From NCBI GenBank assembly GCA_050952625.1, contig JBMNLH010000001.1:32001-96000 (forward strand): 64,000 bases of DNA. The letters run 5' to 3'. This DNA is from Bacillota bacterium (GTDB lineage: Bacteria > Bacillota > Ch66 > Ch109). The position numbers were made by a program, and so were the translations under genes. Below are positions 25,791 through 28,215 of this stretch, in pieces. A model generated the notes under the pieces. It did not search any database. It was not told the origin of the DNA and was given only the letters and a program-made list of their open reading frames with translations. Within the stretch, counting starts at the first letter, position 1, and each line of letters opens with the position of its first letter.

Positions 25791-26144
25791 ATGGAAGAAA
25801 AAATTTTGTCGACTTTGGAGCTAAACGAAGTGATTGCCCAAAAAGCCAGGGAAAATGAGGAATTTCGCTTGGCTCTCTTAAATGATCCCAAGGCAGCCAT
25901 CGCAAAGGAATTTGGAGTTTTGTTGCCAGATAACACCAAAGTAGAGGTTCACGTGGAAAGCCCGAGAGTATTGCACTTAATAATCCCAGCCGGTAATGCC
26001 GATGAGTTGACTGATGACCAGTTGGAAGACGTTGCGGGCGGGGCACTTACAGATCTGCTGAAACTTATAGATCCTGGGAAAATGGTGATAGTGGCCTATG
26101 GAGTACCGTACCCTGGAGGCTCAGGCTGGAAATGGCCTTTTTAA
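25791..26144 (+). CDS. RiPP precursor 3, NHLP leader; core ALTDLLKLIDPGKMVIVAYGVPYPGGSGWKWPF
   Basis: KARENEEFRLALLNDPKAAI...VHVE...LHLIIP...ELTDDQLEDVAGG. Confidence 0.92.
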   Translation: MEEKILSTLELNEVIAQKARENEEFRLALLNDPKAAIAKEFGVLLPDNTKVEVHVESPRVLHLIIPAGNADELTDDQLEDVAGGALTDLLKLIDPGKMVIVAYGVPYPGGSGWKWPF

Positions 26145-26288
26145 ATTATAAATAAGCCGACTGGGTTATATTTAGAAGCCATGAATCGGGTGAGGTAGTT
26201 CATGACTTTACTCTAATTATGCGTGTTGTTGATGTTAACTTATGCTTAATGGATTAATAATTCTAATTTTAAATTAGGCGGTTATATC

Positions 26289-26666
26289 ATGGAAGAGAAA
26301 ATTTTGTCGACTTTGGAGCTTAACGAACTGATTGTCAAAAAAGCCAGGGAAAATGAGGAATTTCGCTTGGCTCTCTTACATGATCCCAAGTTAGCTATCG
26401 CAAAGGAATTTGGAGTGGTGTTTCCAGATAACACCAAGGTAGAGGTTCACGTGGAAAGCCCGAGAGTATTGCACTTAATAATCCCAGCTGGTAATGCCGA
26501 TGAGTTGACTGATGACCAGTTGGAAGACGTTGCGGGCGGAGCACTTCAAGATCTGGCGAATCTAGATCTGATGAAAAAATATGATGATTTTGGGAGACAA
26601 CAGATGATAATTACCAATTTAGTATCGCACCCTGGAGGCTCAGGGTGGAAATGGCCTTTTAGATAA
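26289..26666 (+). CDS. RiPP precursor 4, NHLP leader; core ALQDLANLDLMKKYDDFGRQQMIITNLVSHPGGSGWKWPFR
   Basis: Leader nearly identical to precursor 3; divergent core with the same C-terminal decapeptide. Confidence 0.92.
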   Translation: MEEKILSTLELNELIVKKARENEEFRLALLHDPKLAIAKEFGVVFPDNTKVEVHVESPRVLHLIIPAGNADELTDDQLEDVAGGALQDLANLDLMKKYDDFGRQQMIITNLVSHPGGSGWKWPFR

Positions 26667-26685
26667 GCGAGTTGGGTTTTAACTC

Positions 26686-28215
26686 ATGAAGATGATTAAT
26701 AAACCGATAAGCGCGGTTTGGGAAATAACGATGGGCTGTAACATGCGGTGCAAGCACTGCGGCTCCAGCTGCCATGATGCTCTCCCTGGCGAGCTAAGCA
26801 CCGACGAAGCCCTCCAATTATGTGATGACCTCGGGGAACTTGGAGTCGAATGGGTCACCCTATCGGGTGGCGAGCCGACCACCCGCAAGGATTGGCATTT
26901 AATTGCCGAGCGGTTAACCCAAAACGGCGTGATTCCCAACCTGATTACGAACGGTTGGCTCTTTAACGAAGAGATTCTTGACAAAGCGGTTAAAGCGGGC
27001 GTGGGGACGATTGCCTTCAGCTTGGATGGCTTGCAAGAAAACCATGATTTCCTGCGCCGAGAAGGTTCATACCAGAGAATCATGCGGGCCATTGAGTTAT
27101 GCCGGCAGCGGAACCAGGCAGTAACTGCCATCACCACAATCAACAGGCTGAACCTGGGTGAGCTAAAGGAGATGAAACAAGAACTGGTCAGTCGGGGGGT
27201 CAAACAATGGCAGGTTCAGATGGGATTCCCCATGGGAAACATGGCTGATCACCGCAGTTTGGTCATTGGGCCCGCTGATGTCGATCTGGTAATTGATTTG
27301 GCTTACCAGTGCCTGCTGGATTCTTCGATCGAAGTGATGCTGGGTGACTGTATCGGCTACTATAACTTGAAAGAGATCGAAGTATTTAAAAAAAGGTGCG
27401 GGGGTACGTACCCCCGGCAGGGCTGCACGGCTGGCAAATACACTTTTGGCATTTTGCATAACGGTGACATATTGGGTTGCACTTCTATCCGGGATAAGGA
27501 GTTTATTGAAGGTAATATTCGAAATACCTCGCTAAAAGTAATCTGGGAAAACCCGAATAGCTTTGCCTGGAACCGCAACCTCAAGAAAGAGGATCTGACC
27601 GGTTTTTGCCAAAAATGTCGGTTCGGAGACCGTTGTCTGGGCGGGTGTTCAAACACAAAACTGACCACCGGGGGAAGCATCTACGCCGAAAACCAGTATT
27701 GTTCCTATAATTATGCTTACAAACAGAGAATCAAGCTGTTTGAAAAAAAACAATCGGTTGAGGAACTTTACGTCATGGCCCACAACTATGCACAAAAAGG
27801 CTACTGGCAATTGGCGGAATCTGCCCTGCAAGTTGCCCTGCGGCGGAATGGTGCAGACAATGACCTTGATCTATTAAACCTTTACGGATACGTTTGTTTT
27901 AGACTCGGCAATTATCGGGTTGCACTGGAAGCCAATGAAAAAGTGCTGCAAAGGGAGCCCGACGCTGTTTACGCCCTGAAAGGCAAGGGACTTTGCCTCC
28001 ATCGCCTGGGTCACTCAGAAGAGGGAATAGACCTCCTGAAAAAAGCAGTGTCTTTGACTGACGCCAGTTTTATGGATCCGTATTTAGATCTGGCAATTGT
28101 CCTGGCTGAAATTGGTCGTCAGGATGAAGCCATTTCGGTAATTGAAACGGGACGTCAAAAATCGGCGGAATTTATCGGGCAAAGTCAAGCCTTATATCAA
28201 CAATTACTAGGATAA
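26686..28215 (+). CDS. radical SAM/SPASM peptide maturase (PlpX/splicease-like) with C-terminal TPR repeats
   Basis: AVWEITMGCNMRCKHCGS, ELSTDEAL, WQVQ...PMGN.AD, IGYY, GCTAG...GC, LTGFCQKC...CLGGC...YC; TPR-like helices after ~aa 360. Confidence 0.8.
   Translation: MKMINKPISAVWEITMGCNMRCKHCGSSCHDALPGELSTDEALQLCDDLGELGVEWVTLSGGEPTTRKDWHLIAERLTQNGVIPNLITNGWLFNEEILDKAVKAGVGTIAFSLDGLQENHDFLRREGSYQRIMRAIELCRQRNQAVTAITTINRLNLGELKEMKQELVSRGVKQWQVQMGFPMGNMADHRSLVIGPADVDLVIDLAYQCLLDSSIEVMLGDCIGYYNLKEIEVFKKRCGGTYPRQGCTAGKYTFGILHNGDILGCTSIRDKEFIEGNIRNTSLKVIWENPNSFAWNRNLKKEDLTGFCQKCRFGDRCLGGCSNTKLTTGGSIYAENQYCSYNYAYKQRIKLFEKKQSVEELYVMAHNYAQKGYWQLAESALQVALRRNGADNDLDLLNLYGYVCFRLGNYRVALEANEKVLQREPDAVYALKGKGLCLHRLGHSEEGIDLLKKAVSLTDASFMDPYLDLAIVLAEIGRQDEAISVIETGRQKSAEFIGQSQALYQQLLG

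Follow-up and report, generated by a model that had tools for sequence, protein, structure and literature searches.

Does an anaerobic Bacillota bacterium encode a tyramine splicease with a tetratricopeptide repeat (TPR) domain fused to its catalytic core? This question is raised by a locus in a window of 64,000 nucleotides (contig JBMNLH010000001.1, positions 32,001 to 96,000; assembly GCA_050952625.1; coordinates below are those of the window), in which the gene for a radical S-adenosylmethionine (rSAM) enzyme with a SPASM domain and a TPR tail follows two genes for paralogous precursor peptides, here called precursors 3 and 4. Spliceases excise tyramine at XYG, as described in the available portions of two reports (PMC11414181, PMC9811515), and precursor 3 carries such a motif. 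The initial annotation took the enzyme to be PlpX-like, that is, of the splicease type. We conclude that it belongs to a large TPR-fused family of rSAM/SPASM peptide maturases that is closely related to the tyramine spliceases yet distinct from them. Sequence comparisons indicate that the Tyr of x-Y-G is very probably the enzyme's target, and tyramine excision at Ala102-Tyr103-Gly104 of precursor 3 is the best reading of the reaction, which we hold with moderate confidence. The features concerned are as follows.

25791-26144, + strand: precursor 3, 117 aa, from the list of open reading frames (ORFs)
Residues 1-84 of precursor 3: leader of the NHLP type, ending in VAGG
26043-26141, + strand: precursor 3 core, 33 aa, holding the proposed modification site and a GWKWPF motif
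26094-26102, + strand: codons of Ala102-Tyr103-Gly104 of precursor 3, the proposed x-Y-G splice site
26289-26666, + strand: precursor 4, 125 aa, a paralogue of precursor 3 whose leader likewise ends in VAGG
26686-28215, + strand: rSAM/SPASM-TPR enzyme, 509 aa, from the ORF list
26686-27702, + strand: radical SAM core and SPASM domain, residues 1-339 (Pfam Radical_SAM 13-165, SPASM 247-311)
27703-28215, + strand: C-terminal TPR-like domain, residues 340-509 (Pfam TPR_2, TPR_16, TPR_12 and others over 376-487)

Precursors and enzyme at the locus

The three genes lie on the + strand, and precursor 4 is separated from the rSAM gene by 19 nt. Downstream of VAGG, the core of precursor 3 reads ALTDLLKLIDPGKMVIVAYGVPYPGGSGWKWPF. 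Both precursors exceed the cut-off of the NHLP leader model TIGR03793 (50.9 bits), with scores of 76.6 bits for precursor 3 and 74.6 bits for precursor 4, and both end in a common GGSGWKWPF tail. The AYG initially noted in precursor 3 is present at residues 102-104. When the two precursors are aligned with 15 relatives, the site reads VAYGVP in precursor 3 and TNLV in precursor 4, and no YG was found in a scan of the precursor 4 core. The alignment indicates that the site was lost from precursor 4. This paralogue would serve as the natural negative control that had been suggested, and it is probably not a substrate of the rSAM-TPR enzyme.

Bioreactors and anaerobic digesters are the source of 17 public DNA runs that contain the stretch. 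Parts of 25552-28713 are spanned by contigs from two public DNA runs, which show no base difference within the region of the finding. Identical contigs were also recovered from two RNA-library runs, as short pieces at 24645-25267 and 27316-27555 (run X20) and as seven pieces inside 29161-32361 (run X18). Since contigs from RNA libraries are no proof of transcription, expression is not claimed.

The enzyme combines a CX3CX2C radical SAM motif, CNMRCKHC at residues 18-25, with a SPASM domain that has auxiliary-cluster cysteines. Twelve cysteines are invariant in 17 relatives (residues 18, 22, 25, 29, 222, 247, 265, 308, 311, 317, 321 and 339), and three signatures are shared with spliceases: WQVQMGFPMGN (175-185), IGYY (223-226) and NQYC (336-339). 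Four signatures had been listed for the enzyme beforehand. AVWEIT..CN..C.HCGS (residues 10-27) and IGYY are exact, and the other two exist with a different spacing: WQ.Q...MGN has four residues before MGN rather than three, and L.GFC..C...C.GGC is in fact LTGFCQKCRFGDRCLGGC, which is C-x2-C-x5-C rather than x3.

An AlphaFold2 model of the enzyme (predicted local distance difference test score, pLDDT, 81.2; predicted template modelling score, pTM, 0.74) consists of the usual core followed by ten helices over residues 340-508, for which pLDDT is mostly 80-97. The TPR tail is thus real by both Pfam and AlphaFold2, and at ~170 aa it is somewhat longer than the ~150 aa first estimated. A fold search with the model matches PqqE, SkfB, SuiB, CteB and anSME, and a PDB sequence search returns generic SPASM enzymes and designed TPRs alone; no splicease structure is among the matches of either search. 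The gene is present as a single copy in the genome, where its closest paralogue is 27% identical.

Placement of the enzyme among curated families and in trees

To place the enzyme, 5.8 billion proteins were searched and 8000 candidates were scored, of which 1415 are relatives at E<=0.001. The 119 other proteins among the matches listed are 483-536 aa long and 49-81% identical to the enzyme, and most carry TPR Pfam domains. Sources of the family include Clostridia, Desulfotomaculum, Orenia, Heliobacterium, Sporomusa, a Competibacteraceae metagenome-assembled genome and Methanococcus maripaludis. For comparison of gene neighbourhoods, the best 80 of 226 stretches in species-representative genomes were used (loci numbered L###); the closest among these 80, at 67-80% identity, are from Syntrophomonadaceae, Pelotomaculum, Desulfotomaculum and Desulforamulus. 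On this basis the bacterium is probably an anaerobe similar to Syntrophomonadaceae, in agreement with the bioreactor and digester origin of the 17 DNA runs.

The enzyme was also scored against 18,950 NCBIfam models, and 77 families matched, among them the following.

TIGR04103 (nif11-class peptide rSAM maturase 3): 216.4 bits, E 5e-64, cut-off 725; best model
TIGR03913 (GDL-motif maturase): 193.9 bits, cut-off 591.75; second best
TIGR04133: 178 bits, cut-off 425
AhbD: 164.9 bits, cut-off 500
MftC (TIGR03962): 131.2 bits, cut-off 265

We take the PlpX family, IPR026482, to be equivalent to TIGR04103, which is consistent with the Nostoc locus described below. The initial view of a splicease-like enzyme is borne out in that this splicease model is the nearest curated family. 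PlpX is placed in IPR026482 in the accessible part of the source (PMC11002830). TIGR04103 matches all 17 aligned family members, with the lowest best E-value of any family (1.6e-76), and none of the 17 exceeds its cut-off. Among 151 genomes of the phylum, no protein scores above the TIGR04103 cut-off; scores over 200 bits are confined to this gene (216.9 bits) and an orthologue (221.3 bits), and the other listed rSAM proteins of these genomes reach at most 141 bits.

Two trees, a quick one of 39 rows and a careful one built on the core alone (36 rows, 351 columns), agree with each other. Five family rows that are near-duplicates or very long were left out of the careful tree, as was the window's second rSAM protein (end branch 8.66). 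One true TIGR04103 member is included; PlpX, PcpX and RhaX are not among the rows. TIGR04103 and the GDL-type enzymes form a clade with support of 100/99, and the same support (100/99) is found for a superclade that unites the rSAM-TPR family, the TIGR04103/GDL clade and TIGR04133. MftC, NirJ, TIGR04053, TIGR04347 and three paralogues from this genome lie outside the superclade.

Analysis of single alignment columns is more telling than the tree. A signature position had to be conserved in 90% or more of the 23 family rows and 80% or more of the 5 TIGR04103/GDL rows, and to occur in no more than 25% of the 8 outgroup rows. Nineteen positions are common to the rSAM-TPR family and TIGR04103/GDL and rare in the outgroups, including W175, Q176, Q178, M183, N185, G224, Y225, N336 and Y338, and they concentrate in WQxQ....MGN (175-185), IGYY (223-226) and NxYC (336-339). 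TIGR04133 is without them. The signatures of the initial annotation are thus real traits of both clades.

The Y-G site across the family

A lone YG in a core of 33 aa is unremarkable by chance; the conservation of the site is remarkable. In a profile search with precursors 3 and 4, 13 other loci proved to have an NHLP precursor immediately upstream of the enzyme gene. These orthologous precursors read [AV]YG[VI] in 11 of 13 cases and MYAV in the other two (L017, L019). Homologues of precursor 3 fall into 46 clusters, the window's own two included, of which 35 have YG, 6 have YA and 5 have neither. Precursor 4 is one of the latter five; the others are two paralogues present as second copies and two entries that are truncated or chimeric.

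In distant loci, very different molecules beside the enzyme have the same site, often repeated, as in KPLYGIDPVKPIDIKPLYGIDVKPLYGID, ALYGIPPIVEYGIPPTLKYGI and LKYGYPCNNDANLKYGYP. This was quantified with a motif rule: an ORF counts if it lies on the same strand as the enzyme gene and no more than 1500 bp from it, is no longer than 400 aa and contains YG[IVFYATGM]x0-2P; ORFs more than 2500 bp away were taken as far. By this rule 60 of the 80 family loci are positive. The motif occurs in 73 of 724 near ORFs (10.1%) and in 12 of 2905 far ORFs (0.41%), a 25-fold enrichment. The 244 YG sites have the consensus [L/P/V]-[K/L/A]-Y-G-[I/Y/V/F]-[P/K]-P, and single candidate substrate proteins carry up to 13 motif sites (16 YG dipeptides). 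Among the features of the precursors, x-Y-G alone accompanies this enzyme family from phylum to phylum, and a conserved x-Y-G precursor beside an rSAM gene, the feature of spliceotide-type systems, is found at this locus.

A true TIGR04103 system offers a direct comparison. When the enzyme core was compared with plasmids by tblastn (154 records), a gene annotated as TIGR04103 was found on a plasmid of Nostoc sp. C057; its product is 34% identical to the enzyme and, at 852.8 bits, scores above the TIGR04103 cut-off. Its neighbours are a Nif11 precursor with the core RGSIALYGLPPELF and, directly downstream, an ORF of 71 aa, which is the type I layout. In its Φ-x-Y-G-Φ-P-P shape the Nostoc site, ALYGLPP, agrees with VIVAYGVPYP of precursor 3 and with the family consensus.

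Absence of PlpY and a possible role of the TPR domain

Cyanobacterial type I systems comprise a separate Y protein, PlpY. The initial annotation saw no PlpY here, and indeed no match of the PqqD type, or of another RiPP (a peptide made on ribosomes and then post-translationally modified) recognition element (RRE), was found in the 14 cluster ORFs scanned or in residues 1-97 of the second rSAM protein. Its premise that spliceases need an RRE is true only for cyanobacterial type I systems; according to the accessible text of PMC11414181, the Y protein is absent from all non-cyanobacterial spliceotide pathways.

One small protein of the cluster was considered as a stand-in for PlpY.

24332-24592, + strand: 86-aa protein, no family match

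It is kept in 10 of 13 close loci at 39-63% identity. As a PlpY substitute it was rejected, having no family match and an hhalign probability of 9.6% to the NHLP leader, with no comparison to a Y protein made; that it is a leader-like helper is conceivable.

The TPR domain is retained throughout the family, with a mean majority-residue share of 0.59 compared with 0.71 for the core. The substrates beside the enzyme have four unlike front ends, which a rough script rule classified as at least 9 NHLP leaders, 21 short double-Gly leaders, 13 short others and 17 proteins of 141-321 aa. Members without the TPR domain (L048, L079, L086, L087 and the Agathobacter gene of L096 at 4001-5155; 384-450 aa) come from Agathobacter, Roseburia, Lachnospiraceae and Clostridium. 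None of them has a YG neighbour, whereas 55 of 70 members whose tail measures 100 aa or more do. The L096 gene is followed by a major facilitator superfamily (MFS) transporter, and the TPR-less members may have another substrate. The diversity of leaders and the lack of YG neighbours in TPR-less members favour a role of the TPR domain linked to the common core motif or to activation over one linked to any particular leader. That the TPR domain replaces an RRE is suggested by circumstantial sequence evidence. We tentatively propose that it helps to hold the substrate, more likely by the Pro-rich core motif than by the leader, and rate this as somewhat doubtful.

Proposed reaction and its alternatives

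In the proposed reaction, the enzyme would bind precursor 3, SAM would be reductively cleaved at the cluster held by C18, C22 and C25, and a hydrogen would be abstracted from Tyr103 of V-A-Y-G-V-P. A tyramine equivalent (C8H9NO, -135.07 Da) would be cut from the backbone, as by PlpX-type enzymes at x-Y-G, and a new C-C bond would join the Ala102 carbonyl to the former Tyr carbonyl, giving an Ala-derived alpha-keto-beta-amino acid residue, a ketoamide. A separate PlpY would be unnecessary, as in other non-cyanobacterial (binary) systems, and the fused TPR domain may help to hold the substrate through the Pro-rich core motif rather than the leader. The C39-peptidase ATP-binding cassette (ABC) transporter of the cluster would remove the leader after VAGG and export the peptide. 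Precursor 4, which is without the site, would be left unspliced.

Several observations weigh against tyramine excision. At 216 bits, far below the cut-off of 725, the enzyme is not a TIGR04103 member, and the PlpX-like identity given in the initial annotation is to that extent unsupported. In the careful tree the rSAM-TPR family forms a clade of its own (97/96). The sister link between the rSAM-TPR family and the splicease/GDL clade has support of 69/34, and forcing the family together with TIGR04133 costs 0.5 log-likelihood units and is not rejected (p-AU, from the approximately unbiased test, 0.456). The Nostoc enzyme is 47-48% identical to GDL-type, DUF1843-associated enzymes and 32.5% identical to one family member. 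YA takes the place of YG in 6 of the 46 homologue clusters, and 20 of the 80 loci have no adjacent ORF that satisfies the motif rule. Among these 20 are the two MYAV loci, four or five TPR-less enzymes, short contigs and six loci in which a peptidase ABC transporter follows and no precursor is within reach. The argument on the TPR domain draws on few, related genomes, and no biochemical test of any family member was found in the literature searched.

The alternative that survives best is that the enzyme targets the Tyr of x-Y-G by another radical reaction, such as a C-C or C-O cross-link (for example a Y-G-V cyclophane), MftC-like chemistry or epimerisation. It would be in keeping with a family that is a separate clade, 32-34% identical to the splicease/GDL clade, and with the occurrence of Y-A variants. 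Next to G there is almost always I, V, Y or F and then P, an order that would also suit a three-residue cross-link of the Ω-x-x pattern; set against this, no model named for a triceptide (three-residue cyclophane) maturase is among the 25 best of the 77 matched families, the lowest of these 25 scoring 59.5 bits. Similarly, the Tyr-acting MftC is among the relatives at 131 bits, but this score is under its cut-off of 265 and MftA and MftB are not nearby. TIGR04103 is the best model for both the enzyme and its family, the site of a true TIGR04103 system is of the same Y-G-Φ-P-P shape, and the 19 signature positions are held in common with the splicease/GDL clade. On this evidence, another reaction at the same Tyr is possible but unlikely. 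A broader form of it seems a little less probable again: that the whole TPR-fused family is not a splicease family and instead performs an undescribed radical reaction on Φ-Y-G-Φ-P-P, the TPR domain reading the Pro-rich core, free of any leader, in peptides as well as in repeat proteins of 250-320 aa. The family spans more than 1000 gene clusters in Bacillota, Bacteroidota, Pseudomonadota, Spirochaetota and one methanogen.

A different target, the C-terminal G-W-x-W-P, would leave YG to another enzyme or to a structural role, the rSAM-TPR enzyme making, for example, a Trp cross-link. The GGSGWKWPF tail is indeed present in both precursors 3 and 4, W-x-[WIV]-[PA] occurs in 34 of the 46 homologue clusters, and it is the YG-less precursor 4 that immediately precedes the enzyme gene. 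Beyond the close clade, however, the enzyme has neighbours with YG but without NHLP/WxWP-type precursors, and the second rSAM and the prenyltransferase-like gene of the cluster are limited to exactly the WxWP clade, which makes this alternative improbable. Least credible, to the point of near dismissal, is that the adjacency is incidental, with a non-peptide or housekeeping substrate and TPRs for protein contacts unrelated to precursors: the family is very widespread (the 1415 proteins among candidates scored), Lachnospiraceae TPR-less members adjoin an MFS transporter with no precursor, and the 20 negative loci lack a YG neighbour, but motif ORFs are 25-fold enriched beside the gene, C39-peptidase ABC exporters occur in ~31 distant loci and the fold is that of RiPP maturases.

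The rest of the cluster

Tyramine excision by the rSAM-TPR enzyme would be one of several modifications encoded in the cluster, the remaining features of which are given below.

14690-20931, + strand: export and leader-cleavage genes, namely an NHLP HlyD-type adaptor, the C39-peptidase ABC transporter and a second NHLP ABC transporter
20979-25664, + strand: upstream companions, in the close clade only: extracytoplasmic function (ECF) sigma factor, 98-aa GG peptide, DUF7005 protein, 342-aa prenyltransferase-like protein, the 86-aa protein and two Nif11-type precursors
23273-24301, + strand: the 342-aa protein, no Pfam, NCBIfam or PDB sequence match
28422-32722, + strand: downstream companions, in the close clade only: peptide arginase (FlmR/OhkR-like), a protein of unknown function in two ORFs, second rSAM/SPASM protein, ABC substrate-binding protein and a fifth GG-leader peptide (...SAWQW)

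The export set scores above all cut-offs (TIGR03794, 381.7 bits; TIGR03796, 1095.6 bits with a cut-off of 853.3; TIGR03797, 952.1 bits). NF052474 matches both pieces of the arginase, and the two-ORF protein is GNAT-like by guess alone.

All cluster proteins were compared with the 80 loci by BLAST. The sigma factor, the 98-aa, DUF7005, 342-aa and 86-aa proteins, the Nif11-type precursors, the arginase, the two-ORF protein, the second rSAM and the binding protein are found in the close clade only, at 33-87% identity. What is held in common with the 67 distant loci is the rSAM-TPR enzyme, the ABC exporters (those with a C39 peptidase accompany the enzyme in ~31 of them) and weak cross-matches of the second rSAM. 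Because the other cluster genes and WxWP are confined to the close clade, it is YG that accompanies the rSAM-TPR enzyme, and G-W-x-W-P the clade-specific enzymes.

Two further motifs end the precursors. G-W-[KNQR]-W-P closes the NHLP precursors (26115-26141 and 26637-26666) and is found in 34 of 46 homologue clusters, and the tails of the Nif11-type precursors end in Trp, mostly as R-W: …AVRSRW, …LPTRW and …SAWQW (25123-25135, 25652-25664 and 32708-32722). Both the G-W-x-W-P and the R-W tails are probably targets of the clade-specific enzymes, that is, the second rSAM, the prenyltransferase-like protein and the peptide arginase, and not of the rSAM-TPR enzyme.

The 342-aa protein is kept in 7 of 13 close loci. 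Atlas comparisons give it feature scores of 0.88-0.89 to PF19156, Trp_DMAT or PTase_Orf2 clusters and a template modelling (TM) score of 0.68-0.69 to DMATS clusters, all below the tool's bar, and PDB sequence searches with this protein and with the DUF7005 protein returned nothing useful. An ABBA-type aromatic prenyltransferase is a lead for its identity. In the Atlas, a cluster of 628-aa rSAM proteins from Bacillota aligns to its fold over residues 2-340.

Both the arginase and the gene that follows it are split into two overlapping ORFs (28422-29373 and 29324-30081). Contigs from other DNA runs are one base shorter at 28636, carry an additional A after 29746 and are without the frameshifts; the splits are therefore assembly errors and not pseudogenes. 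The second Nif11-type precursor (about 25300-25664) is likewise broken across two frames, and one run drops base 25406 in part of its depth. A CwlD amidase gene at 9680-10466 is also split into two ORFs (profile positions 1-45 and 47-189). Further assembly indels are likely.

Other genes of the window were noted in passing. In a low-GC island (29% GC over 1-8000), a SMODS nucleotidyltransferase gene (PF18144) precedes one for an S-4TM effector (PF18159) at 661-2622, a putative anti-phage pair resembling CBASS (cyclic oligonucleotide-based anti-phage signalling system); DUF1643 is at 4980-5531. Just downstream of the cluster, at 34243-36993, is an AmmeMemoRadiSam system, made up of a protein with an AmmeMemoSam_A domain (TIGR04335, 133.7 bits) and its radical SAM partner (TIGR04337, 335.8 bits).

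Novelty and significance

To our knowledge, spliceases are the only known route by which beta-amino acids and reactive ketoamides enter ribosomal peptides and proteins. Non-cyanobacterial spliceases were reportedly typed by Scott et al. 2022 (Chem 8:2659); if the TPR-fused family is already among those types, the gain here would be a new cluster make-up and a natural YG-less control precursor. As far as the available sections of two further sources tell, hundreds of non-cyanobacterial spliceotide pathways have been typed by rSAM phylogeny and precursor identity (PMC11414181), and YG-rich neighbours of rSAM-SPASM genes have been found in 189 genera, with 27 pairs confirmed (PMC10849128). Given its size and its conspicuous YG neighbours, the TPR-fused family very probably came up in that published survey already, and its novelty is uncertain; no description of a TPR-fused splicease was found within the literature searched. 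What may be new is the explicit TPR fusion, the NHLP/AYG/WxWP precursor type with its natural YG-less paralogue, and the combination with an arginase, a second rSAM and a prenyltransferase-like protein.

Spliceases are used for protein labelling and give protease inhibitors, according to the accessible parts of PMC10533398 and PMC11626197. If the TPR-fused family splices, it would provide a very large set of single-polypeptide enzymes from anaerobes, possibly leader-independent, with a short, repeatable recognition motif, Φ-Y-G-Φ-P-P. In that case the present cluster, from a syntrophic digester bacterium, would also join a ketoamide to tailoring directed at Trp and Arg, chemistries not known to occur together.

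Comparison with known systems

The cluster as a whole appears to resemble the landornamide-type or proteusin-like NHLP clusters in its NHLP precursors, peptide arginase gene and NHLP-type export set. It differs in that the arginase scores 191 bits against the NF052474 cut-off of 350, and in that a splicease-like enzyme, a second rSAM and a prenyltransferase-like protein are added.

The mycofactocin maturase MftC was rejected as an identity for the rSAM-TPR enzyme: the score is below the cut-off (131.2 against 265 bits), no MftA- or MftB-like genes are nearby and MftC is an outgroup in the tree. A GDL-motif maturase (TIGR03913) was rejected as well, the score of 193.9 bits being below 591.75 and the neighbours being NHLP precursors rather than DUF1843 peptides. 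The GDL-type enzymes are still similar, as the second-best model, in length (516 aa), in having the same signatures and in standing beside DUF1843 peptides with an N-terminal x-Y-[G/A/M], but their C-terminal extension is not a TPR domain and gives a weak zinc-ribbon match alone in Pfam. In three loci (L097 2037-2752, L099 1659-2372 and L101 1793-2248), DUF1843 (GDL motif) peptides adjoin TIGR03913-type enzymes, and all begin with x-Y-[G/A/M] near the N-terminus (MLYGGA, KPYGVA, QPYGAG, MYAAS). These peptides may be splicease substrates as well.

Binary systems without a Y protein, as described in the available parts of PMC11414181 and PMC11626197 (Rheinheimera RhaX/RhaA, RcsX and RasX), are alike in pairing an enzyme with an adjacent YG precursor, a likeness drawn from the published descriptions. 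For RhaA, the same accessible text proposes that a leader helix takes the role of Y, whereas here the leaders are diverse while the TPR domain is kept. The signal of the published survey, YG-rich neighbours of rSAM-SPASM genes, is, as far as the available text of PMC10849128 describes it, the same signal as is seen here.

Compared with type I systems (PlpX/PcpX with PlpY), the present enzyme has a far lower TIGR04103 score (216 bits versus 725 for the cut-off), 34% identity to the Nostoc enzyme and a clade of its own. It also has no Y protein and instead a ~170-aa TPR domain fused C-terminally, the residue X of its site is Ala rather than Met or Leu, and its host is an anaerobic Bacillota bacterium rather than a cyanobacterium. 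The two nevertheless share an rSAM and SPASM enzyme, an NHLP-leader precursor with a double-Gly cleavage site, a Φ-x-Y-G-Φ-P site and the signatures WQxQ....MGN, IGYY and NxYC.

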